A stretch of 37,697 nucleotides of DNA from Candidatus Saccharimonadales bacterium. Lineage in GTDB: Bacteria; Patescibacteriota; Saccharimonadia; Saccharimonadales; UBA4665. How positions within the stretch are numbered: the first letter of the stretch is position 1; every line of letters begins with the position of its first letter. The notes below the pieces were generated by a model that was not told the origin of the DNA, did no database searches, and saw only the letters and a program-made list of their open reading frames with translations. This document shows positions 1,147-21,167 of the stretch, one piece after another. A program made the translations under genes and the position numbers. The DNA lies in assembly GCA_049661165.1 (NCBI GenBank), contig JBASZU010000087.1, positions 1-37,697 of the forward strand, in the 5' to 3' direction.

Positions 1147-1806
1147 ATGGAGAGGCTGTATTCACTAACCGAAGACTATGGGCTAGGTTTATTAACAGAG
1201 GCTGATAAGTCTGTGTTGAGTGTTGGCATCTCAACAGCTGGAGCGGCAGAAATACAGATGGCGCAGCGGTTATCTGAGCGTCGTATCATTGCGACGACTA
1301 TTGATAGGTCCGGCGTTGGTCTGGCTCAAGACGCAGTGAAAAACGCTGGTGTATCTGACCAAGTAGAGGTACGTTTGGAGGATATCGCAAGCGATCTTCC
1401 ATATGCAGACGAAACATTTGATTTTATATACGCTCGACTGGTTCTTCACTATTTGCCAAAACAGCAGCTAGAGAAAGCGGCGCAAAATATTGCCAGGGTA
1501 GTCCATGGTGGCGGTAAACTATTTGTCGTTGTTCGATCGACGGACTGCTTAGAAGCGAAAGACCCCAAGTCGCTGTACGACCCAACGACATGCATGACTA
1601 CGTATCATACTATCGACCGCCCCGATGTCACAGCAAGCCGGTATTTTCACTCAGATGATTCGATAACAGATGTATTAACAAGGCACGGATTTGTGATAGA
1701 TGAACTGACCCACGTAAAAGAAGCGCTCGCGTTTGGTTTTGAGCGAGATATACTTTCGACTCACAAAGACGATCTCATACAGCTTGTTGCGCACAAAAAT
1801 GGGTAA
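1147..1806 (+). CDS. Class I SAM-dependent methyltransferase
   Basis: 219 aa. It has a glycine-rich motif I region (VLSVGISTAGAAE), an acidic motif II, and FDFIYARLVLHYL (Methyltransf_11-like). There is no DPPY/NPPY motif, so it is not an obvious DNA methyltransferase. Confidence 0.75.
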   Translation: MERLYSLTEDYGLGLLTEADKSVLSVGISTAGAAEIQMAQRLSERRIIATTIDRSGVGLAQDAVKNAGVSDQVEVRLEDIASDLPYADETFDFIYARLVLHYLPKQQLEKAAQNIARVVHGGGKLFVVVRSTDCLEAKDPKSLYDPTTCMTTYHTIDRPDVTASRYFHSDDSITDVLTRHGFVIDELTHVKEALAFGFERDILSTHKDDLIQLVAHKNG

Positions 1807-1815
1807 AGTGGACGT

Positions 1816-2364
1816 ATGATTTGGGCGAGAGAATGTTTTTTGGCCGGGGGTTTGGTAGCGGCAGTGGGGCTACTGTATGTGTTTCGGCGGGTACCATTTG
1901 GGACGTATTGGTCGGTGAGTTTACATGCTTCCGCGCGGCGAGATACAACTTTTGTTTTCGGTGGAGCCATGCTTATCGCAACGGCGCTGCTAGCAGTGTA
2001 TTTTGAGGGCTGGCTTATACCGAAGTATGACTACGGTGTTGCCCTGCGGTATGGCCTGAGAGCAGCTATAGCATGTTTGGCTCTGCTGGCGTTAAGCCCG
2101 CACTATGAAGGAAAATGGCAGGGGAGAGTACACGTTGCCGTTTCATGGACCATGGTTGTCCTCATGCCGGTTATTTTGCTGCTGCTTGCGCTTGAAAACT
2201 GGGGTACAACGGGCGGCTACCTTGCTCTGCTAGCAATAGCCGTACAGGCAACGTTACTCGGAATATTTTGGGGTATAAGAGGCATGTACGAGCGTTTTGC
2301 TTTGCTGCAAAGCATCTCTATTGCAGTTTTCTTTGCCGTCATAGCCGTTCTCGGTTATTTGTAA
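1816..2364 (+). CDS. Polytopic membrane protein, unknown family
   Basis: 182 aa with about 5-6 hydrophobic helices and no recognisable catalytic motif. Confidence 0.55.
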   Translation: MIWARECFLAGGLVAAVGLLYVFRRVPFGTYWSVSLHASARRDTTFVFGGAMLIATALLAVYFEGWLIPKYDYGVALRYGLRAAIACLALLALSPHYEGKWQGRVHVAVSWTMVVLMPVILLLLALENWGTTGGYLALLAIAVQATLLGIFWGIRGMYERFALLQSISIAVFFAVIAVLGYL

Positions 2365-2397
2365 TGTGTATCAAAATGTCATCCAGAGGACACCTAG

Positions 2398-2426
2398 TTG
2401 ACATTCTAGATGTATTTTGATACCAT
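2398..2426 (+). promoter_or_regulatory. Promoter of the RelB/RelE-led four-gene operon
   Basis: TTGACA (2398-2403), 17-nt spacer, then TGaTACCAT (2418-2426). ATG 2434 lies 7 nt after the -10. The track's ATG 2410 sits inside the spacer. Confidence 0.5.
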
Positions 2427-2433
2427 TATCGCT

Positions 2434-2736
2434 ATGAATAGCACATCACGCATAACTATACCGGTCGATGAAAACTTTCGCAGTCAGCTTGCTTTAAAAG
2501 CGAGCAGCCTAGGGTTTGATTCTACCCAGGCTATGTTCCGATATGTGGGAAGGGCGCTGGTGGACGGGCGCCGGGTTGATTTTGGGGAAGTAGAAGACAA
2601 CTGGGGTTCGCCTCCACAGCATGTCGTCGAACGGTGGAAACAAAATGCTGTAGAACATGAAAGAGACAAAGCGAGGGGGAGCGTCAAAAGCTTTACAAGC
2701 TCCGACGACGCTCTAGAGTACCTGAACTCTCTATGA
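2434..2736 (+). CDS. RelB/DinJ-like ribbon-helix-helix antitoxin
   Basis: ITIPVDENFRSQLALKASSLGFDSTQAMFRYVGRALV matches the DinJ/RelB N-terminal pattern. Its stop overlaps the toxin start (ATGA at 2733-2736). The start was chosen from promoter geometry; 2410 is the alternative. Confidence 0.7.
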   Translation: MNSTSRITIPVDENFRSQLALKASSLGFDSTQAMFRYVGRALVDGRRVDFGEVEDNWGSPPQHVVERWKQNAVEHERDKARGSVKSFTSSDDALEYLNSL

Positions 2737-3005
2737 AGCCGATTGAGTTTGATAAAAGTTTCATAAAAGCGTACAAAAAACGTATAGTACATGACCAAAA
2801 ACTCAAAAAGCGTTTTGGTCTGCGTTTCGCACAGTGGCAGAGCGGTGAACGCTGTGCTCCCTTATTTGATCATGCGCTCGATGGGAATATGCTGGGGCTT
2901 CGCGCTTTTTCGGTCAGCGGCGATGTGAGAGTTATTTACTACGAAACAGACGAAGCGTATGTTTTTACGGATGTCGGCTCACATGCACAGGTGTACGGGG
3001 AGTGA
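2733..3005 (+). CDS. RelE/StbE/YafQ-family mRNA interferase toxin
   Basis: 90 aa. FIKAYKKR..., ...GLRAFSVSGDVRVIYYE...VFTDVGSHAQVYG is the typical RelE/YafQ layout. It is a paralog of the gene at 19971-20237. Confidence 0.8.
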   Translation: MKPIEFDKSFIKAYKKRIVHDQKLKKRFGLRFAQWQSGERCAPLFDHALDGNMLGLRAFSVSGDVRVIYYETDEAYVFTDVGSHAQVYGE

Positions 3006-3928
3006 TTGCGGTGTGGCAGAAATTTGGGGATTATCGGGCAGGGAGAAGGGTGCGAAAGCAGAGTTCGGGTGCGCGGACGCTGTACGAAGATGTGCAGGTT
3101 AGTTTGCGCAACGGAGTGCCCATAGCGAGTCGTCGTTGGCGCGGGCAGCCCGATGTGCAGCATTTGAAACCACTTATCGAACAGGCCAAAAAAGAGGCTA
3201 GCGACATAGAGTCTTCTGCGAACCTGAGTGGTGCGAAGGCATGGCACTGGTTGCGGGCACTGGTGCTGCAAGCACCGCAGGCTGCTCTGGCACAGGGGCA
3301 GATGGACAAGCACCCCCACGGGTACCATAGTCGGGGGGAGCGTTTGTATGAGCTTATAGACTTTAACGACGCCTTTGTGTCGACGGTGCTGGCGCTCGAC
3401 GAGCCGCTGTTGGCGGGCTTTAGCGACGAAGCGAAACGGCTCATGGACTGGTTTTGCAAACGAGTTGGGGTGCGGGGGTTTAGCGACGAGCAGTACCAGG
3501 CTATTGTGCAAGGACTCAGTCGCGAAATAGCTGTGTACCGCGGTGTGCAAAAGGAAGGCTTTGCTGCATCAATGACCAGCCGGGCAAGCGACGCCCTGGG
3601 GATTGACATGGTTATCACGGACCCAGCAACCGGAAAATACGTAAACATTGACTGCAAAGCCCCAAGTGCCTACCGTCACCGTATTTACGACTTGCTGCGC
3701 GAGGGTAGACTCAGCGAAGAAGAAGTGACAGCGGCGGAAATGCTGGGCTATATAGGTGAAATGAACGGCCACGGCGGTGAACGTACCGAAGTCATCTTGT
3801 GGCGGATAGAAAAGGAACGGTACGGCGAAATTGCGGGGTTTAGTTTTACAGACACTACCGAGCTTGGAAAGACAATCCGCGCTATACTGGACACATATGG
3901 AACAGCAACGACCACTCATAGACGATAA
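3002..3928 (+). CDS. Hypothetical protein with PD-(D/E)xK nuclease-like motif
   Basis: 308 aa. The GTG start overlaps the RelE stop (GTGA at 3002-3005); GTG 3050 is an alternative. A candidate helix Glu (SREIAVYR) is followed by GIDMVI (Asp codon 3605-3607), then YVNIDCK (DxK, Lys codon 3656-3658). The long antisense ORFs here are Ser/Cys/Arg-rich shadows. Confidence 0.55.
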   Translation: MIAVWQKFGDYRAGRRVRKQSSGARTLYEDVQVSLRNGVPIASRRWRGQPDVQHLKPLIEQAKKEASDIESSANLSGAKAWHWLRALVLQAPQAALAQGQMDKHPHGYHSRGERLYELIDFNDAFVSTVLALDEPLLAGFSDEAKRLMDWFCKRVGVRGFSDEQYQAIVQGLSREIAVYRGVQKEGFAASMTSRASDALGIDMVITDPATGKYVNIDCKAPSAYRHRIYDLLREGRLSEEEVTAAEMLGYIGEMNGHGGERTEVILWRIEKERYGEIAGFSFTDTTELGKTIRAILDTYGTATTTHRR

Positions 3929-4169
3929 ACTAGCAAGTGAACTCACCCGCCAGCTAAAGATTATTAACTTCTGGATTAGCTTGTTCGGAAGCATTATAGT
4001 CATCACGCTGCTTATACTCGGGTTCCTTGTTTTTAAAGTGGTAACATACGTGCAAAGTACCGAACAAAAGGTGAGTGACCTGCGGCAAAAAACGGTGAAC
4101 ACGCTGAATGTAAAAGACGACTTATGTAAAAACAGTGTGCTCAGCGGCAGCGGCTACTGCAAAAACTGA
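3897..4169 (+). CDS. Small single-pass membrane protein
   Basis: 90 aa from ATG 3897, which overlaps the previous gene by 32 nt. One strong TM helix (FWISLFGSIIVITLLILGFLVFKVV) and a Cys-containing C-terminal tail. Confidence 0.45.
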   Translation: MEQQRPLIDDKLASELTRQLKIINFWISLFGSIIVITLLILGFLVFKVVTYVQSTEQKVSDLRQKTVNTLNVKDDLCKNSVLSGSGYCKN

Positions 4170-4209
4170 ATACTCAAAACATGTCCCGTAAATAACAGAT
4201 ATGTAGTAC

Positions 4210-4244
4210 ACGTTATGCTCAAGGACTGTCCTTGAGCATAACGT
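4210..4244 (+). promoter_or_regulatory. Perfect 16-bp inverted repeat (upstream terminator and/or PadR operator)
   Basis: acgttatgctcaagga (4210-4225), loop ctg, then tccttgagcataacgt (4229-4244). It lies 41 nt after the upstream stop and ends 12 nt before TATAAT (4257-4262). That -10 is 7 nt upstream of the padR ATG at 4270. Confidence 0.45.
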
Positions 4245-4269
4245 TGTCTATTGACATATAATATTTGGC

Positions 4270-4644
4270 ATGGTACCTTGGTATGGAAAGGTAGCTTTTA
4301 ACATGCTGGACAAAGAAAAAATAGATGACAGTTTCGCCCCATTACGCAAAGGGCTGCTTGAGTTTGCTGTGCTCAGTACAGTTTCTCGGAGCAAGGTATA
4401 CGCAGCCGACATCCTTGAACGGTTGCTTAGAACGCCGTTTGCCACCAGCGAGGGCACGCTGTACCCGCTGCTTTCAAGACTCAAACGCGATGAATATCTG
4501 GCGTATGAGTGGGCAGAAAGCGAAGCTGGTCCACCGCGTAAGTATTACAGCCTAACGCCAGCAGGTAAGGCGCGGTTGGCAGAGCTGCATGTGTACTGGA
4601 ACGAATTATACAAAAGCTTGGAAGCACTAGGAGGCAAGCGATGA
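4270..4644 (+). CDS. PadR-family transcriptional regulator
   Basis: 124 aa. The winged-helix region ...VYAADILERL...SEGTLYPLLSRLKRDEYLAYEW...GPPRKYYSLTPAGK is the PadR signature. ATG 4303 is an alternative start. Confidence 0.9.
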   Translation: MVPWYGKVAFNMLDKEKIDDSFAPLRKGLLEFAVLSTVSRSKVYAADILERLLRTPFATSEGTLYPLLSRLKRDEYLAYEWAESEAGPPRKYYSLTPAGKARLAELHVYWNELYKSLEALGGKR

Positions 4645-5756
4645 AAAAGGTAGTAACAATAAATCTAAATGGGCGAGCGTATCAGGTCGAAGAGGCTGGC
4701 TATGAAGCACTGCAGGATTACCTCAGCAAGGCTGAAAAAACGCTGGTGAAAAACCAGGACAAAACAGAGATATTGGCCGATATAGAGCAGGCCATAGCAG
4801 ATAAGTGCACTGGCGAACTCAAAACCGGCAAGAATGTCATTGCCACAGAAACAGTTCGAGCAGTCCTAGAGAAGATAGGGCCTGTCCAAGAGGGTTCTAC
4901 AGATGAAGATGAACCGGGTGAGTCGGGGGCGGGTGTTGAATCGGCGCGCAAACTGTACCGACTGCCGAAAGAAGGTCAGCTAGCTGGTGTATGTGCGGGT
5001 CTGGCGGCGTATTTTGGCACCGATACGACCATCATGCGGGTGATATTTGTCGTACTATTGTTTATTTCACAGGGTTTCATGATACTCATTTATTTGGCAC
5101 TGGCGGTTGCGATGCCAGAGGCTAAAAAGCCGGAGCAAGTTGCAGAAGCTTACGGCAAACCAGGCACCGCCAAGGAAATCGTTGGCCGGGTCAAAGATAT
5201 TGCTACCGATAAAGACAATGTCGCCAAAATTGGCACGGTTATTACAGTGGTAGGACGGGCGATTGCCCAAATTCTCAAATTTGCTGCAGCGGTCATTTTT
5301 GGTGCATTTACTCTCGCATGGGTGTGGGTGCTTGGCGCAATCGGGCTCGAGGGCCTGCAGTTTAAGGATGAACTCGCTTCTCTGAACGGCTTCAAGCAAA
5401 TGGTGTTCGTAACAGCAGTTTATATAGTGGTGGCCGTACCATTTTTCTTGCTCGTGCGGGCGCTAGACAGGGCAACCCGTGAGGGCGCAAAAGATGAGCT
5501 GAAGAATACGGCCGCATTTGACGGAACTATGATAGCGCTCATAGTCACCGCGACCGTTGTTCTGAGTGCATTTTTTAGTGTATATGCCACAAGTGTTAAC
5601 GACTATGTTACTACCCACGGCGGCTATCTAGATTTCGGTCGGCATCACCTGTGCGTAGATGAGGCAAAGTGCGGGTCGGGCATAGAGTATCTCCGTGCAC
5701 ATCCGCAATATTGGGACGAAAACCCTCAGATTGACCGCAGGCTATTGCAAAACTAG
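4641..5756 (+). CDS. PspC-domain membrane protein
   Basis: 371 aa. ATGA overlap with padR, and AGGAGG (4629-4634) 6 nt upstream of the ATG. LYRLPKEGQLAGVCAGLAAYFGTDTTIMRVIFVVLLF is the PspC domain, followed by several TM helices. Confidence 0.85.
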   Translation: MKKVVTINLNGRAYQVEEAGYEALQDYLSKAEKTLVKNQDKTEILADIEQAIADKCTGELKTGKNVIATETVRAVLEKIGPVQEGSTDEDEPGESGAGVESARKLYRLPKEGQLAGVCAGLAAYFGTDTTIMRVIFVVLLFISQGFMILIYLALAVAMPEAKKPEQVAEAYGKPGTAKEIVGRVKDIATDKDNVAKIGTVITVVGRAIAQILKFAAAVIFGAFTLAWVWVLGAIGLEGLQFKDELASLNGFKQMVFVTAVYIVVAVPFFLLVRALDRATREGAKDELKNTAAFDGTMIALIVTATVVLSAFFSVYATSVNDYVTTHGGYLDFGRHHLCVDEAKCGSGIEYLRAHPQYWDENPQIDRRLLQN

Positions 5757-7558: not shown

Positions 7559-7674
7559 TTGTAAGAATTCTTACAGTAAATGTTGATTGAATATAACCAG
7601 TTACTGCTGTATAACTAATAGGGTAAAGCAGTAGCGTTTATGCTGAACGCTGAAATTTGGCGAGGGAGTCGGAT

Positions 7675-10600
7675 ATGCACATGTTCTATACGAACAAAAC
7701 AAAAACCATCCGCACAAATACCAAATACAAACCTCTAACAATTATCAAAACAGGCATAATCGCAGTCACCCTACTTTGTACGGGTCTACTTGTGTCAAAT
7801 AATCAGCCGCCGGCGTATGCGGCCGAGTTGTGTTACAAAGACGCTCAGGGAGCCAATGACGAACCTAATCAGAAAGATTTGACCAGAGCTTGCTACGAAA
7901 AGACCGGTCTACCAGATTATATTACGGTTAAATGGCAGTGGGATGAGCTTGCAACGTCGGGCAATAACAGCATGGACGGATGTGCGCTCTTTGACACAGA
8001 CGGCGATGGTCTCGTTAACTATGCAGCTTGCGTAACCACGAAAAATGAGGGTACAAATAAAGACGAACACGCAGTGTTCGACGCCCTCACGATGTATTCG
8101 TGCGGTGATAATACGGTAGACAGATGTTCCCAGCCTCTACAGGTCATCCCGAATGGATTGAATACCTGTACTGTTACCCAGCAGTCGAGTGATCCTTTCC
8201 CTATCGGAAGTGAAAACCCGATAGACACGGTCGCAAGCTGCACTATATACCTCAGCACTATTGGTTCCGGCGCGGCTCAGCTTATCGACGCCTGCTCCTA
8301 CCCATCACAACAGCCAAATTCTGACCCTTCAGACTGTGTTCTTATAGACAAAGGACTGGCCAAGCTCTCCGTCGTAAAATCTTTGGTACCTGCTACCGAC
8401 TCTGGTACGTTCAACCTTCAGGTAAATGGCACAACAAAAGCTACCGGAGGTAATCTTACGGACACCGGTACGATAGTGGTTGATGCTGGCGCAAACTTGG
8501 TTGGTGAAACAGCAGCATCTGGCGCGCTGAGTGACTACACGACGGCAATTGAATGCCGTGATCTACACGGCACGGGTGCGGTCGTAGGGAGCAGCACAGG
8601 TGGTACGCTGCTAAATGTAACGGTTGCTGAAAACGCTGACATTCTCTGCACCATAACAAATACGCGCAAAGCCGGACAAATAACGGTTGTCAAAGAAGTG
8701 ACCAATGACAATGGAGGCACGAAAAAAGTTGCAGATTTCCCACTATTTATTAACGGCACCTCCACTACAAGTGGTGTCGCCAAGACACTTTCACCTGGGA
8801 CATATACTGTTTCAGAAACAAACCAGGCAGGTTATCACCAGAAATCGCTGACATGTGTTGATAGTTCAACTGGTCAGGCCGTAGCTCATCCGGTAGAACT
8901 GGGGGATGACCAGAACGTGACATGTACCATTGTGAACGACGACAGGCCAGCTACGTTGACCGTCGTTAAAACATTTGCCAATCAGTACGGCGGCACAACG
9001 AACCCGGCTGACTTCAGCTTTACAATAAACAGCGGCGCACAGACAGCTTTTGAGGCAGACGGTAGTAACCAGCTATCGGTCAATGCAGATACATACAATG
9101 TTGCCGAGACTCCAAAAGGCGGCTTCGCGGCGCCAAGTTACAGTGGGTGTAGCGGTATTGTCCTCTCTGTTGGCGGTAGTGCTACCTGTACTATAACCAA
9201 CAGCGACCTCCCGGCAACTCTTATTGTTAAAAAAATTGTCATCAATGACGATGGCGGTACGGCCACAGCCGATGATTTTTCGTTCCAGGTAAACGATGCG
9301 AGTGCTGTGAAGTTCGAAAAAGACGGCCAAAATGATCTCTTGCTGGCTTCCGGCACATATGGAGTTGTCGAAGCAGACGCTCCGGGATATGCAACTACCT
9401 ACAATAACTGCCAAGAACTAGTAATCGCCAATGGTCAAACACAGACGTGTACCATTACAAACAACGATATCGCACCGACACTGACGCTCGTGAAAGCTGT
9501 AACAAACGATGATGGCGGTACGGCTACTGCTACCAACTGGACGCTAACAGCTCAGTCTACTGATGCCACGCTTCCTGTGCCTAGCGGCAAGACAGGCGAG
9601 GCTGCAGTTACCAATGTAGTGGTCAAGGCCGGCGTGGCTTACGCACTTTCTGAGGCGGATGGGCCGACCGGTTATGCGAGCGAGGGGTGGCAATGTACTG
9701 CTGGAATCATGAAAGACGGCGCCGTAACACTTGCGCTCGCTCAGAATGCTACCTGTACTATTACCAACAACGATATCGCACCGAAACTGACGGTGCGCAA
9801 AGTCACGGAGCCAGCTAGTTCAACGCAGGCATTTTCGTTTGTTGTTACGAACCTCGTAGGTGATACTCCATTTGCGCTCGATACAAACGCCGATACCGTT
9901 ACGCCGAACGAACGCACGTTTACGGCTCTGAGGGCAGGGACAACAACTATTTCTGAGCAAAGTACAGAGGGCTGGGTGCTTGCAGCCGCCAGCTGTGATA
10001 CTGCCAGGGCAGAACTGAACGGCAGCACCTTACAGCTTGAACTTAGTCCTGGCCAAGACGTGACGTGTACATTTACAAACAGCCAACTTGGTAGTGTGGA
10101 GGTAACGAAATTCCGCGATACGAACGAAAATGGCATACTCGATGATACGGAAGAGTTGCTGCCAGACTGGGAGATGAACCTCTCAGAGTCCTGTGAAGGT
10201 GCAGAGTGCGAAGCTTTCACATCGAAAGTCACCAACCAAGATGGTGTGGCCATATTTGAAGGTGTCAGTAGCGGCTCCTATGTATTGAGCGAGACACTCC
10301 AGGATGGTTGGCTGCAAACAGGAATGTACTGTGGTGAACCGGGCGAAACCCCGATAAATACCAATAACCTATCGCTTCGCCTTGGCGCTGGCGCTACACA
10401 ACGCTGCTACGTGGGTAATACCCAGCCGCTTCGTTTGCTGCTTGCCAAAACCAATAACGCATCCTCGGTAAAACAGGTGGGCGACACCGTACTGTACACA
10501 CTGGTTGTGACAAACCCTGAAGACAGCGGCTACGCGAGCGATGCCACGGTGACCGATACTCCTCCTGAGGGCTTCAAATATGTTCTGGGTAGTTGGACAG

Positions 10601-12000
10601 CAGCGTCAAATATACGCGGCGACTTGAAAACAGGAGGGGTTACGACAGAGCCAACATATGCTAGCCCTGGTGACTGGAACCTTGGGGATATGTTGCCGGG
10701 TGAAATCGTGACACTAACGTATTTGACTAAAATAATCGCCGCGAGCGATGGAATATATCCCGACAGCGCCTTTGCATCGGCAGGGTCTGTCCTGGGTGCG
10801 TCTACGGTGTTTTCTAACTTGTCGCTAACGCCAGACAACCCATTTGTCGGGACGCAGGTGACGGTAGATTCACCGCTAGTACCTGGTCCGGTGCAGCGAG
10901 CAGGGGTTGTGTTGGGTGCATCGACCACGTTGCAAAATACAGGAGAGAAGATTATCTCGAGTCTGCTGTTTGCGCTTGGTATCATTGCCGTATCGGTGAT
11001 TGTCTTTGCACGAAAAAAGAAAAGAACTTTAGCATACAACGGAATTCGTACGAGCGCTTTACTACTAGTGTTTGGTCTGGTGCTGTTTGCGGGTGGTACC
11101 GCGCAGGCTGCAACCTACTGGACGACAAATATATCGACACCTGAGGCTCAGACGACCACAGGAGTGTTCGGCATAGATTTTCAAGTGTTGAGTACGACTC
11201 CCAGCGACACGTTTACGGTGCAGCTTTACCAGAATGGCATTGTCATAGCGACCCAAAATATCGCAACAGACAATGGTGACTCGGGTTCATTCCCTATCTC
11301 GCTTACCAGCGACGGCACATACAACTATTTCACCAAAACGCAACACGGCAGCGATGTATCAGATGTGAAAACATCGCCAACACTTACCGTTCAGTTTGAT
11401 AGAACGGCTCCGGCTGCCCCAACTCAGGTGACTAAGACCACAACGACCGGTGGTTACGTCCTGAACTTCCTCGTCCCCGGCGGTACGGAATCGTCCCAGG
11501 TGCAAGTGTTTGCTTCGAGCTCCACAACATTTATTGCTGATGCAAGCACACTTGTGCGCACTATGGCAGCAACGCCAGGCGTGGTTCAGTCAACTGCACT
11601 TGGAGTGAGTGACGGCCAGCCGCGGTATTTTGCGGTACGGACTGTTGACGCTTTCGGCAATACTTCTGCGCTGGTCACAGAGTCGCCTCAAGTCCAGGCA
11701 GCAGCGACTACTACTACGACAGGAGCTGTGCAGGGGGCGTCTACCGCACTCTCGGCCTCGGCAGCGCAGGGTGCCGTAAATGGGGCGAACACGACTTTAG
11801 ATGCAGATAAGACACTACAAACTCAGAATACAACCTCAGCTAGTAACGGCGAGGTTCTTGGGCTAGAGACAGAATCGAAAACAACGCCAGCGGCCAAGCA
11901 GAACGCAACGAATGGCAGAGGTCTCATATGGGTTGTAGCACTCGGTGTTCCCGCAATTATCGCTGCGGTACTACTGTTGACCCGCAAAAAGACATCCTAG
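7675..12000 (+). CDS. Giant cell-surface protein with tandem beta-sandwich repeats, DUF11-like region and Ig/FN3-like C-terminal module
   Basis: 1,441 aa from ATG 7675, with GAGGGAG 7 nt upstream; the track start 7657 is TTG. There is an N-terminal signal peptide (...PPAYA-AE). The module ...TCTITN-D-(A)PTLTVVK..NDDGGT...DFSF... recurs repeatedly, followed by VGDTVLYTLVVTN (DUF11-like). It has an internal and a C-terminal TM plus basic tail. Confidence 0.85.
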   Translation: MHMFYTNKTKTIRTNTKYKPLTIIKTGIIAVTLLCTGLLVSNNQPPAYAAELCYKDAQGANDEPNQKDLTRACYEKTGLPDYITVKWQWDELATSGNNSMDGCALFDTDGDGLVNYAACVTTKNEGTNKDEHAVFDALTMYSCGDNTVDRCSQPLQVIPNGLNTCTVTQQSSDPFPIGSENPIDTVASCTIYLSTIGSGAAQLIDACSYPSQQPNSDPSDCVLIDKGLAKLSVVKSLVPATDSGTFNLQVNGTTKATGGNLTDTGTIVVDAGANLVGETAASGALSDYTTAIECRDLHGTGAVVGSSTGGTLLNVTVAENADILCTITNTRKAGQITVVKEVTNDNGGTKKVADFPLFINGTSTTSGVAKTLSPGTYTVSETNQAGYHQKSLTCVDSSTGQAVAHPVELGDDQNVTCTIVNDDRPATLTVVKTFANQYGGTTNPADFSFTINSGAQTAFEADGSNQLSVNADTYNVAETPKGGFAAPSYSGCSGIVLSVGGSATCTITNSDLPATLIVKKIVINDDGGTATADDFSFQVNDASAVKFEKDGQNDLLLASGTYGVVEADAPGYATTYNNCQELVIANGQTQTCTITNNDIAPTLTLVKAVTNDDGGTATATNWTLTAQSTDATLPVPSGKTGEAAVTNVVVKAGVAYALSEADGPTGYASEGWQCTAGIMKDGAVTLALAQNATCTITNNDIAPKLTVRKVTEPASSTQAFSFVVTNLVGDTPFALDTNADTVTPNERTFTALRAGTTTISEQSTEGWVLAAASCDTARAELNGSTLQLELSPGQDVTCTFTNSQLGSVEVTKFRDTNENGILDDTEELLPDWEMNLSESCEGAECEAFTSKVTNQDGVAIFEGVSSGSYVLSETLQDGWLQTGMYCGEPGETPINTNNLSLRLGAGATQRCYVGNTQPLRLLLAKTNNASSVKQVGDTVLYTLVVTNPEDSGYASDATVTDTPPEGFKYVLGSWTAASNIRGDLKTGGVTTEPTYASPGDWNLGDMLPGEIVTLTYLTKIIAASDGIYPDSAFASAGSVLGASTVFSNLSLTPDNPFVGTQVTVDSPLVPGPVQRAGVVLGASTTLQNTGEKIISSLLFALGIIAVSVIVFARKKKRTLAYNGIRTSALLLVFGLVLFAGGTAQAATYWTTNISTPEAQTTTGVFGIDFQVLSTTPSDTFTVQLYQNGIVIATQNIATDNGDSGSFPISLTSDGTYNYFTKTQHGSDVSDVKTSPTLTVQFDRTAPAAPTQVTKTTTTGGYVLNFLVPGGTESSQVQVFASSSTTFIADASTLVRTMAATPGVVQSTALGVSDGQPRYFAVRTVDAFGNTSALVTESPQVQAAATTTTTGAVQGASTALSASAAQGAVNGANTTLDADKTLQTQNTTSASNGEVLGLETESKTTPAAKQNATNGRGLIWVVALGVPAIIAAVLLLTRKKTS
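8671..10080 (+). repeat. Five tandem ~88-100-aa domain repeats inside the surface protein gene
   Basis: Module boundaries are marked by CTITN/CTIVN/CTFTN followed by xTLTVVK-type strands. Modules 4 and 5 share a 19-nt exact DNA repeat, aacaacgatatcgcaccga, at 9460-9478 and 9766-9784. Confidence 0.8.
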
Positions 12001-19648: not shown

Positions 19649-19676
19649 TTGACATGAAAACTACAAAGTATATACT
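19649..19676 (+). promoter_or_regulatory. Promoter of the second RelB/RelE operon
   Basis: TTGACA (19649-19654), 16-nt spacer, then TATACT (19671-19676). ATG 19684 is 7 nt downstream. The track's ATG 19654 overlaps the -35. Confidence 0.5.
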
Positions 19677-19683
19677 TGGTAGT

Positions 19684-19974
19684 ATGAGTACTACAAAAGC
19701 ATCAGATACAACGGTTATGAGCGTGAAGGTGAAGAAAGACCTTAAGGCGAAAGCGCAGGCGGTGGCCGGGCAGTATGGCATACCGCTGGGGACGCTGCTG
19801 AATGCGTATATGCATCAGCTGGTTTTGACCGGGCAAGTGTATTTTCCAGCGGTCGAGGTGGCCACGCCGCAGATGGAAAAGATAATTGCCGAGATTGAGG
19901 CTGAGCGCAGAGACGATAAGACCATCGGTCCGTTCGAGACGGTCGAGGAATTTATAGCCGACCTAGAGAAATGA
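19684..19974 (+). CDS. RelB/DinJ-family antitoxin
   Basis: MSVKVKKDLKAKAQAVAGQYGIPLGTLLNAYMHQLVLTGQV is the DinJ/RelB ribbon-helix-helix pattern. ATGA overlap with the toxin gene. Confidence 0.75.
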   Translation: MSTTKASDTTVMSVKVKKDLKAKAQAVAGQYGIPLGTLLNAYMHQLVLTGQVYFPAVEVATPQMEKIIAEIEAERRDDKTIGPFETVEEFIADLEK

Positions 19975-20237
19975 CGGTGCGTATCGAGTATCACCCTCGG
20001 TTCAAAAAGCAGTACAAGAAGCTTCCGTCTTCTGTGCAAGCACGCTTTCAGCAGAGAATAAAACTTCTGATTATTGAGCCAGATAACCCTACGTTGCGGG
20101 TGCATGCCCTGAAGGCTGAGTACAAGGGCTACTTAAGCATGAATGTAACCGGAGACATTCGCGCATTGTTCTACTACGAAGGCACAAATGTAGTAGTTTT
20201 TGGCTTTATAGGGACACGCAGCCAGTTGTATGGGTAA
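19971..20237 (+). CDS. RelE/StbE-family mRNA interferase toxin
   Basis: 88 aa. FKKQYKKL..., ...GYLSMNVTGDIRALFYYEG..VVFGFIGTRSQLYG. Confidence 0.8.
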   Translation: MTVRIEYHPRFKKQYKKLPSSVQARFQQRIKLLIIEPDNPTLRVHALKAEYKGYLSMNVTGDIRALFYYEGTNVVVFGFIGTRSQLYG

Positions 20238-20246
20238 AATAGAACT

Positions 20247-21167
20247 GTGATAACCACACTAACTGGTGAGAATGAGGTGCTGCGGGCGGCAGAGTTGCGC
20301 CGGGCTGTTGCTGCGTTCGAGAATGAACATGGCGATATGGCGGTGGAGCGGCTGGACGGGGAAGAGGCAAGCTACGAGCGCATGGTGGAGGCGGTACAGA
20401 GTTTGCCGCTTTTGGTGGCGCGCAAGCTCGTGGTACTGCGCGCGCCGGGCGCGAACAAGGAATTTACTGAAAAGTTCGCAACGTTTGTGGAAGCCGTTTC
20501 AGATACAAACGATGTCATAATCGTAGAGCCAAAGCTAGACAAGCGGCTGACCTACTACAAACAGCTAAAAAAACTGACAGAGTTCAAAGAGTTTGCCGTG
20601 CTGGATGCGGGTGGATTGGCGCGATTTGCAGTTGATTACACAAAAGAGCGGGGTGGCAGTATTTCGAGTGGTGCTGCGCGTATGCTTGTTGAGCGCGTGG
20701 GTACAAACCAGCTTGGCTTGCAGCAGGAGCTCGATAAGTTACTCGTTTTTGACCCGAAAATTACCGAGCATTCTATAGAAAACCTAACTGAAAAAACACC
20801 TCAAAGTACTATTTTTGAGCTGCTCGACGCAGCATTTGCTGGTGACGCTAAACGTACCATGCGTCTTTATGACGAGCAACGGGCGCTGAAGGTTGAGTCG
20901 CAGCAGGTTATTGCCATGCTGGCTTGGCAGCTGCATGTGCTGGCTATCGTGAAAACCGCGAAACAGCGCAGCGTTGACGACATCGCCCGCGAAGCCAAAC
21001 TAAACCCCTTCGTGGTGCGAAAAACGCAAGGGCTTGCCCGAAACATTTCGCTCGCGCACCTGAAAGAACTTATTACCTCACTTCGTGAATTTGACGTCCG
21101 CACCAAAACCGAAGGCATCATTGCCGACGAGGCCGTGCGGTACTATCTCCTATCCCTCGCAAAATAA
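20247..21167 (+). CDS. holA: DNA polymerase III delta subunit
   Basis: 306 aa with a GTG start. It has the N-terminal L.GE...L pattern with ...LPLLVARKLVVLR.... Length, C-terminal helical domain and position are typical of HolA. Confidence 0.7.
   Translation: MITTLTGENEVLRAAELRRAVAAFENEHGDMAVERLDGEEASYERMVEAVQSLPLLVARKLVVLRAPGANKEFTEKFATFVEAVSDTNDVIIVEPKLDKRLTYYKQLKKLTEFKEFAVLDAGGLARFAVDYTKERGGSISSGAARMLVERVGTNQLGLQQELDKLLVFDPKITEHSIENLTEKTPQSTIFELLDAAFAGDAKRTMRLYDEQRALKVESQQVIAMLAWQLHVLAIVKTAKQRSVDDIAREAKLNPFVVRKTQGLARNISLAHLKELITSLREFDVRTKTEGIIADEAVRYYLLSLAK

Follow-up and report, generated by a model that had tools for sequence, protein, structure and literature searches.

The 37,697-nucleotide (nt) stretch analysed here (hereafter the window; contig JBASZU010000087.1 of a Candidatus Saccharimonadales bacterium) carries, at 2410/2434–4169, four co-directional open reading frames (ORFs) on the + strand, which we call g1 to g4. 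A preliminary description of the sequence had proposed that the four genes form a composite defence or abortive-infection module in which a toxin-antitoxin (TA) pair is coupled to a nuclease-fold protein and a small membrane protein, and the tight co-directional packing on which this was founded is borne out by the ORF coordinates. We consider it likely, however, that a TA pair of the YafQ/RelE type with an orphan antitoxin (g1-g2) was inserted just upstream of g3-g4, a conserved Saccharibacteria gene pair of a polA...fpg housekeeping array. The four-gene "operon" looks like a local by-product of this insertion into a compact genome, with no dedicated or new defence system behind it. What is new here is an unannotated protein family (g3) in a known superfamily and a further member of a known TA family. 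The principal features are as follows.

2398–2426, + strand: predicted sigma-70-type promoter of the TA pair (TTGACA, 17 nt, TACCAT, with a TG extension; 10/12 consensus positions)
2434–2736, + strand: g1, 100-amino-acid (aa) antitoxin candidate of an orphan family (alternative start at 2410 less likely)
2733–3005, + strand: g2, 90-aa YafQ/RelE-family toxin, by sequence
3002–3928, + strand: g3, 308 aa, or 305 aa from GTG 3011; helical N-terminal domain and predicted C-terminal PD-(D/E)xK nuclease-fold domain
3897–4169, + strand: g4, ATG start, 90-aa single-pass membrane protein
4210–4244, + strand: perfect 17-bp hairpin, 41 nt past g4, with a weak T tail; the promoter and gene of a PadR-family regulator come next

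Conservation of g3-g4 and rarity of the toxin-antitoxin pair

For comparison we used loci from 70 species genomes together with 46 from metagenomes; at 95% g3 identity these represent 92 lineages. In these 92 lineages g3, often with g4, belongs to a polA...fpg array, and g1-g2 stands with g3 in two of them only. Co-occurrence of g3 homologs with the g1-g2 pair is confined to these two cases, the closest relative (L004) lacks the TA genes, and the claim of a composite TA-nuclease-membrane module does not hold. Across the 70 genome loci the recurrent order is polA, a variable slot, g3, g4 (in some), a membrane protein of about 207 aa, a HAD gene and fpg. Two complete Saccharibacteria genomes without the TA pair show the order polA, methyltransferase, DUF998, g3, g4, PadR, PspC, one further gene, HAD, HAD and fpg, and the gene order of the window is the same with the TA pair added.

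Homologs of g1-g2 were found only in the window's own species (L003 and L078; 95–97% identity) and in lineage L012 (g1 64%, g2 57%). In L004, which has 85% g3 identity to the window, g3-g4 directly follow the DUF998 gene, and g3 begins 22 nt past the end of that gene. This TA-less lineage is closer to the window in g3 than the TA-bearing L012 (82%), and L005–L009 (79–82%) are likewise without the pair. Because of these TA-less relatives, the g1-g2 pair must be dispensable for g3-g4 and has been gained or lost within the clade.

The position of g3 among replication, repair and nucleotide-sanitation genes is stable even across lineages with only 38–55% g3 identity, and a distant homolog (E = 1e-26) is located between dUTPase and fpg-holA. 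Since the syntenic position is kept over such distances, the pattern is that of a vertically inherited housekeeping gene and would not be expected of a mobile defence system. HAD genes are the commonest neighbours of g3, and in lineage L074 (270–1745, P0207) a 491-aa protein has a HAD hydrolase domain at its N terminus and resembles g3 over residues 206–483; the fusion may be a Rosetta-stone sign that the two are functionally linked, or it may be an artefact of assembly or gene calling, the contig being 1.8 kb long. The content of the variable slot was taken from a Pfam scan of 84 small genes lying ≤1 kb upstream of g3. It yielded NUDIX (19), PNPOx-like (7), dUTPase (5), low-molecular-weight phosphatase (4), dCMP deaminase (3), HAD (3), PIN (3), MazE (2), ParE (1) and YafQ (1, a count that is one too low because the crude gene caller missed the YafQ gene of the window's own species). 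The slot is thus occupied mostly by nucleotide-sanitation genes, against 5–6 TA toxins.

In the window, the remainder of the array is represented by the following features.

2–394, + strand: 3′ end of polA (DNA polymerase I), whose translation ends ...HDSILVECAEQDAEE...IGDNWGEL and stop; polA lies upstream of g3 in relatives
1147–1806: methyltransferase gene, recurring in few loci only
1816–2364, + strand: DUF998-like membrane protein gene (weak Pfam DUF998 match), syntenic in L001/L004, L005 and L007
12506–13528: fpg

Two further parts of this neighbourhood may be recorded. A PadR-family regulator and a PspC-domain membrane protein (4251–5756) lie 3′ of g4 behind a TTGACA...TATAAT-like promoter, and the PadR-PspC pair is conserved 3′ of g3-g4 in the closer relatives only. 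The window also has, between the HAD genes and fpg, a 1447-aa ORF (7657–12000) with repeated SpaA-type prealbumin-fold domains. It probably encodes a surface or pilus-like protein, and the related complete genomes L001 and L002 lack an ORF of comparable size in this interval.

Other toxin-antitoxin modules near g3 and in the window

It is not the case that g3 homologs never neighbour TA genes elsewhere. Some 5–7 lineages have an upstream TA module; the modules are drawn from three families with no relation to one another, and the slot that they occupy is a variable one. In a finer count, about seven lineages have a TA module no more than about 1 kb upstream of g3, and in five the two are directly adjacent. 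A ParE toxin with a ribbon-helix-helix antitoxin is found directly upstream of g3 in L061, whereas VapBC immediately precedes g3 in L009 and L054 and is separated from it by one gene in L005 and L014; VapBC homologs occupy the polA-g3 slot of L005, L009, L014, L054 and L080. The window itself has three TA modules in 37.7 kb. The two modules other than g1-g2, and the gene that follows one of them, are as follows.

471/495–746 and 748–1140, + strand: VapB (MazE/AbrB-type) and VapC PIN toxin, right after the polA stop at 394 and thus in the polA-g3 slot as well
19654–20237: second RelB-like/RelE pair (YafQ/ParE-type; RelE at 19971–20237), ending 10 nt before holA
20247–21167: holA (DNA polymerase III delta), 306 aa, with Pfam matches to DNA_pol3_delta and DNA_pol3_delta_C

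The VapC of the window is 79% identical to the PIN protein of L014; its family matches Pfam PIN and the partner matches MazE_antitoxin. As for the second RelE pair, the preliminary description was mistaken in stating that it has no extension comparable to that of g1-g2, because the 306-aa holA begins 10 nt after it. Both RelE pairs of the window are therefore packed right before conserved genes, and since the second abuts holA as tightly as the first abuts g3, tight packing behind a TA pair is not diagnostic of one system. A literature search on Saccharibacteria and toxin-antitoxin returned nothing relevant at the level of titles and abstracts.

The g1-g2 pair

Among the two genes of the pair, g2 is the better characterised. 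It scores 34.6 bits against Pfam PF15738 (YafQ_toxin), for which the curated cut-off is 30, and matches the RelE-like toxin family of PHROG; matches to RelE_StbE and YafQ of NCBIfam are sub-threshold, and those to the solved YafQ and HP0894 toxins in the PDB are weak (E ~0.007–0.03). It is also 32% identical to the second RelE of the window. By sequence, then, g2 is a YafQ/RelE-family toxin, and family precedent suggests that it would act as a ribosome-dependent mRNA endonuclease.

The designation of the pair as RelB-RelE is accordingly sound for the toxin half only; for g1 no similarity to RelB could be detected and the label follows from position and size. No match to g1 was returned from Pfam, NCBIfam, PHROGs or the PDB, and BLASTP comparison with the RelB-like protein of the window and with Escherichia coli DinJ gave nothing significant. 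Among 5.8 billion sequences g1 falls in two protein clusters, with one other relative only. We therefore dropped the candidate assignment of g1 as a RelB/DinJ homolog, since no sequence similarity was detectable, and retain it as an antitoxin candidate of an orphan family, on the grounds of position and size.

Gene starts, promoter use and transcription

The ATGA junction between g1 and g2 (2733–2736, a 4-nt overlap) was confirmed. The ATG of g1 at 2434 lies 7 nt past the -10 element, and the sole other g1 homolog, that of L012, begins at the equivalent Met (MSNTARITIPV). For these two reasons the start of g1 is most likely ATG 2434, which would give a 100-aa protein from a leaderless mRNA. 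The start of g3 is ambiguous. GTG 3002 produces the GTGA overlap with g2 (3002–3005) of the preliminary description, and its N terminus (MIAVW) aligns with the MSKVW-like starts of homologs. GTG 3011 is preceded by a GGGGAG Shine-Dalgarno sequence 9 nt upstream; several homologs begin at MW, and a database protein 99% identical to g3 is 305 aa long. The GTGA junction thus exists if GTG 3002 is used and is not certain, yet the predicted gap would be ≤5 nt whichever start applies. The 32-nt overlap of g3 and g4 (3897–3928) is as previously described and has the same length in L004; the overlap is 17 nt in L005 and L008 and is replaced by a short gap in other relatives.

A near-consensus promoter site ahead of the four ORFs, also proposed previously, is upheld as a prediction by our consensus scan, in which 2398–2426 is the sole site scoring >9/12 in 1700–4700. 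The same promoter layout precedes the homologous TA pair of L012. In TA-less relatives, an extended -10 element (TGnTAnnAT) is found 7–10 nt before the g3 ATG (TGGTAGAAT in L004, TGGTAAAAT in L005 and TGCTACAAT in L007), and L009 and L061 keep it too, 3′ of their own TA modules. This arrangement implies a predicted g3 promoter with a very short leader. No such element was found before g3 in the window or in L003, where the final codons of the toxin run into the g3 start. The window scan also found no terminator between the DUF998 gene and the TA promoter. Because there is one good promoter, one terminal hairpin and no promoter of g3's own, the four genes are probably one transcription unit in this genome, and because g3 lacks its own promoter and no terminator follows the DUF998 gene, g3-g4 are probably read from the TA promoter or by upstream read-through. 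As a lineage-specific secondary arrangement, a four-gene unit is thus plausible here.

Extended -10 elements 7–10 nt before start codons recur across this material (window 2398–2436; L004 ~3975–4003; upstream of g3 in L005, L007, L009 and L061), which suggests that leaderless or near-leaderless mRNAs may be common in these Saccharibacteria.

g3 as a predicted PD-(D/E)xK nuclease

A word-indexed search recovered at least 447 homologs of g3, and every named source was a hypothetical protein of Saccharibacteria, Saccharimonadales or Patescibacteria; the family forms 95 clusters at 50% identity among 1.84 billion representatives. The preliminary description had picked out as a nuclease core the Glu of SREIAVYR, the Asp of GIDMVI and the DxK of YVNIDCK, and these turned out to be exactly the invariant residues, namely E175 (SREIAV), D202 (GIDM) and D217 with K219 (NIDxK), in alignments of 27 and 31 homologs. 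Their invariance holds across lineages down to about 44% identity. The N-terminal half is also strongly conserved, with the motifs QAPxAAxAQxQMDKHPHGY and ELIDFNDA.

The AlphaFold2 model of the whole protein reached a predicted local distance difference test score (pLDDT) of 87 and a predicted template modelling score (pTM) of 0.84. Residues 27–154 are helical and form an all-helical bundle. Full-length fold searches against the PDB and against viral structures were swamped by non-specific helical bundles (translin, the MazG-like DR2231 and designed proteins) and were set aside, and for this reason the C-terminal domain was re-modelled alone (pLDDT 92). It shows an alpha-beta-beta-beta-alpha-beta core (H162–184, E188–191, E203–206, E212–219, H221–233, E250–255, with more strands) in which the first helix contributes E175, strand 2 opens with D202 and strand 3 carries D217-x-K219. 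Foldseek matches of this domain in the PDB are mostly PD-(D/E)xK nucleases. The best is the SPARDA nuclease-effector chain 9qcc (E = 2e-3, probability 0.98, template modelling (TM) score 0.33), and others include 3dnx, R2 endonuclease, Hjc, EcoRV, VRR-NUC, Can1, DdmD, HindIII and PaqCI. Viral fold matches (RecB-family, restriction, VRR-NUC and Exo VIII nucleases; E 0.07–1.3) are none of them individually significant and point in the same direction. Sub-threshold Pfam matches among the 27 homologs were to Mrr_cat_2 in six (best E 0.005, below the cut-off), MTES_1575 in three, and RmuC, DUF4365 and Mrr_cat in one each. No significant match to g3 was found in NCBIfam or PHROG, and a PDB sequence profile search with the g3 alignment gave a chance CP12 match only.

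The restriction-endonuclease-like fold anticipated for the 308-aa protein is therefore well supported by the model and the invariant residues, with structural matches that are weak and a placement that goes to superfamily level only. We regard g3 as a new, unannotated and lineage-specific family in the known PD-(D/E)xK superfamily. The internal duplication that the preliminary description saw in two copies of GFSDE has a real nucleotide counterpart in a 15-nt direct repeat (3415–3429 and 3475–3489, 14/15 positions matching). The repeat is a lone short two-copy match at the starts of two adjacent helices, and homologs do not conserve the first of the two GFSDE copies; an internal domain duplication was thus ruled out.

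Its fold, its invariant residues and its neighbourhood suggest that g3 most likely encodes a Mg2+-dependent nuclease acting on DNA, with a housekeeping function in the repair or processing of DNA or in nucleotide salvage. The function is proposed because of the fixed place of g3 among polA, dUTPase, NUDIX, MazG, dCMP deaminase, HAD, fpg and holA.

g4 and the 207-aa membrane protein

The reading of g4 as a 90-aa single-pass membrane protein proved correct, as it has one hydrophobic segment, which is preceded by a conserved QLxRQLKxxNFW motif and accompanied by a conserved C-terminal Cys pair. Homologs of g4 were detected only beside g3; they are present in 24 of the 71 lineages with complete flanks, downstream of g3 in 21 and upstream of it in 3, and g4 is a clade-specific partner of g3. 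No match to g4 was found in PADLOC, NCBIfam or PHROGs. The small ORFs that follow distant g3 homologs in L073 and L076 were considered as g4 and rejected, being neither membrane proteins nor g4-like. In many lineages without g4 the ~207-aa protein lies directly 3′ of g3 (e.g., L056 989–1612 and L071 4710–5330), and in some it lies 3′ of g4. A membrane anchor (MxRxxSRFxPLxIxxIIIVL...VRLTVRGPI) lies at its N terminus, and Pfam gave no match.

Proposed arrangement and alternative explanations

Taken together, the cluster would consist of two unrelated units side by side, a type II TA pair and a vertically inherited g3-g4 pair. The TA pair would bring its own near-consensus promoter and a leaderless start and would occupy the variable polA-g3 slot at the place where relatives carry the extended -10 promoter of g3. 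Transcription of g3-g4 would then proceed from the TA promoter or by upstream read-through, with g3 translation beginning 0–5 nt from the toxin stop codon. The g3 product itself is predicted to be a cytoplasmic two-domain protein with an intact E...D...DxK metal-binding site, and it may act at the membrane via g4 or, in other lineages, via the 207-aa membrane protein.

Several observations weigh against this reading. Co-oriented TA toxins upstream of g3 are enriched about 10-fold, at 6–7 within 1 kb (83 kb in all) where 1.6 would be expected (Poisson P 0.001–0.006), against 2–3 in ~385 kb sampled from the rest of the loci, and this figure rests on perhaps 3–4 independent acquisitions. The families concerned are YafQ-type, ParE-type and PIN. 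A purely accidental juxtaposition fails to predict such an enrichment; an insertion hotspot does predict it, and so does a functional link. We read it as an insertion-tolerant, variable slot, that is, an insertion hotspot. Furthermore, g3-g4 have apparently lost their own promoter in the window, so their expression may truly depend on the TA promoter. On the side of g3, the structural matches are weak by any absolute standard (TM ~0.3, best E = 2e-3), none of the Pfam nuclease families is matched above threshold, the N-terminal helical domain is without a family assignment, and the suggested repair or salvage role is drawn solely from conservation of the neighbourhood. The GC content, too, is higher in g3 (0.55–0.59; 3100–3700) than in the flanks, including the TA pair and g4 (0.41–0.49). 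The high value may simply reflect the amino-acid content of the g3 protein; the TA region is not compositionally distinct, the GC-rich part being g3, and we discarded base composition as uninformative on insertion.

The enrichment invites a further explanation, that g3 has repeatedly acquired TA modules as a regulatory front-end, their autorepressed promoters being derepressed in stress so that the nuclease rises when the antitoxin is degraded. In its favour are the three co-oriented families found immediately upstream (YafQ-type in the window and in L012, ParE with ribbon-helix-helix in L061 and VapBC in L009 and L054) and the missing g3 promoter of the window. We nevertheless regard it as unlikely, given that only 3–4 acquisitions appear to be independent, that the VapBC copies, being homologous, may go back to a single long-standing occupant of the slot, that the independent metagenome loci gave no new adjacent case beyond the window's species, that the slot is mostly filled with nucleotide-metabolism genes and that g3 of L009 and L061 retains its extended -10 after the TA module. 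A broader scenario, in which g3 is an undescribed, Saccharibacteria-specific, membrane-associated DNA-processing nuclease tied to salvage or repair, with g4 or the 207-aa protein as its membrane partner, and a TA module took over its transcription in some lineages, the present one among them, coupling expression to stress derepression, is a speculative one to which we likewise give little credence. To our knowledge, these organisms are unable to make nucleotides de novo.

Two other explanations concern the nature of g3 rather than its regulation. One would make g3, together with g4 or the 207-aa membrane protein, an immune nuclease (restriction-like or of another type) that is fixed by vertical descent, in place of an enzyme of repair or salvage; this seems to us improbable. 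The closest sequence and structure signals are indeed Mrr-type restriction folds and the SPARDA effector chain, and TA modules often cluster with defence genes. Set against this are the stable position among polA, dut, fpg and holA at 38–55% identity, the lack of a conserved methyltransferase partner (the gene at 1147–1806 recurs in few loci), the absence of PADLOC matches and the HAD::g3 fusion, which points to metabolism. Very improbable, in our judgement, is that g3 keeps the fold without being a nuclease and serves, for example, as a DNA-binding or scaffolding protein; the low TM scores and the want of a family match at threshold leave room for it, and the large conserved helical domain (invariant ELIDFND and QMDKHPHGY) might carry the real activity, but inactivated PD-(D/E)xK domains usually lose catalytic residues and all four canonical ones are invariant here. 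The dedicated defence or abortive-infection module, in which the TA pair would sense infection and the nuclease and membrane protein would execute the response, comes out as the least probable of all: it can claim the single promoter, the start/stop overlaps or near-overlaps, the terminal hairpin, two typical effector types and a g3 with no promoter of its own in this genome, but the four-gene set is limited to 2/92 lineages, g3-g4 are kept without TA genes in a housekeeping array and in the closest relative, the defence models of PADLOC-DB v2 gave no match for any of g1–g4 at E ≤ 1, and the other RelE pair of the window is just as tight against holA.

Implications

For TA and defence biology these results are a caution, because in the compact genomes of Saccharibacteria start/stop overlaps and a shared promoter do not prove that neighbouring genes form one system. 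The g3 family is narrow, well conserved and unannotated; its PD-(D/E)xK site is intact, its helical domain is novel, and its place among polA, dUTPase/NUDIX/MazG-type genes and fpg is fixed. Should g3 prove to be a nuclease of repair or salvage, it would supply a missing piece in the picture of DNA maintenance or recycling in these reduced epibionts. The TA-rich slot before g3 also offers a possible small natural test case for insertion hotspot versus regulatory capture.

Comparison with known systems

Within the PD-(D/E)xK superfamily (Mrr-type enzymes, the SPARDA effector, Hjc/VRR-NUC), g3 shares the core fold and has E, D and DxK at the canonical positions, but it reaches no family threshold, with a TM score of ~0.3 and sequence identity of ≤20%. 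Where these relatives have a winged-helix, APAZ or helicase partner, g3 instead has a conserved helical N-terminal domain of ~160 residues. It further differs in being confined to Saccharibacteria/Patescibacteria and in its conserved neighbourhood of replication/repair and nucleotide-sanitation genes. Mrr-like type IV restriction enzymes in particular combine a winged-helix N terminus with Mrr_cat above threshold, and g3 has neither, its N terminus being a helical bundle and its matches to Mrr_cat and Mrr_cat_2 being sub-threshold.

The g1-g2 pair resembles DinJ-YafQ and RelBE in layout, with a small upstream gene that overlaps the toxin start by ATGA and a strong promoter directly upstream, and g2 shares with the toxins of these systems a YafQ_toxin match above cut-off as well as the weak matches to YafQ and HP0894. 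It differs in that no resemblance of g1 to DinJ, to RelB or to any entry of Pfam or the PDB could be detected, and in that the module is abutted without a gap by non-TA genes. In the stretch that reads RECHI in HP0894/YafQ, one His is replaced by Ser in g2 (RAFSV).

A parallel for the arrangement as a whole is given by TA modules that lie beside housekeeping operons in compact genomes. As in those cases, a TA pair with its own promoter lies upstream of and co-oriented with the conserved genes, and this occurs twice in the window, before g3 and before holA (20247). The present case departs from them in that the insertion has apparently removed the promoter of the downstream gene, and in that the same slot repeatedly holds different TA families in relatives.

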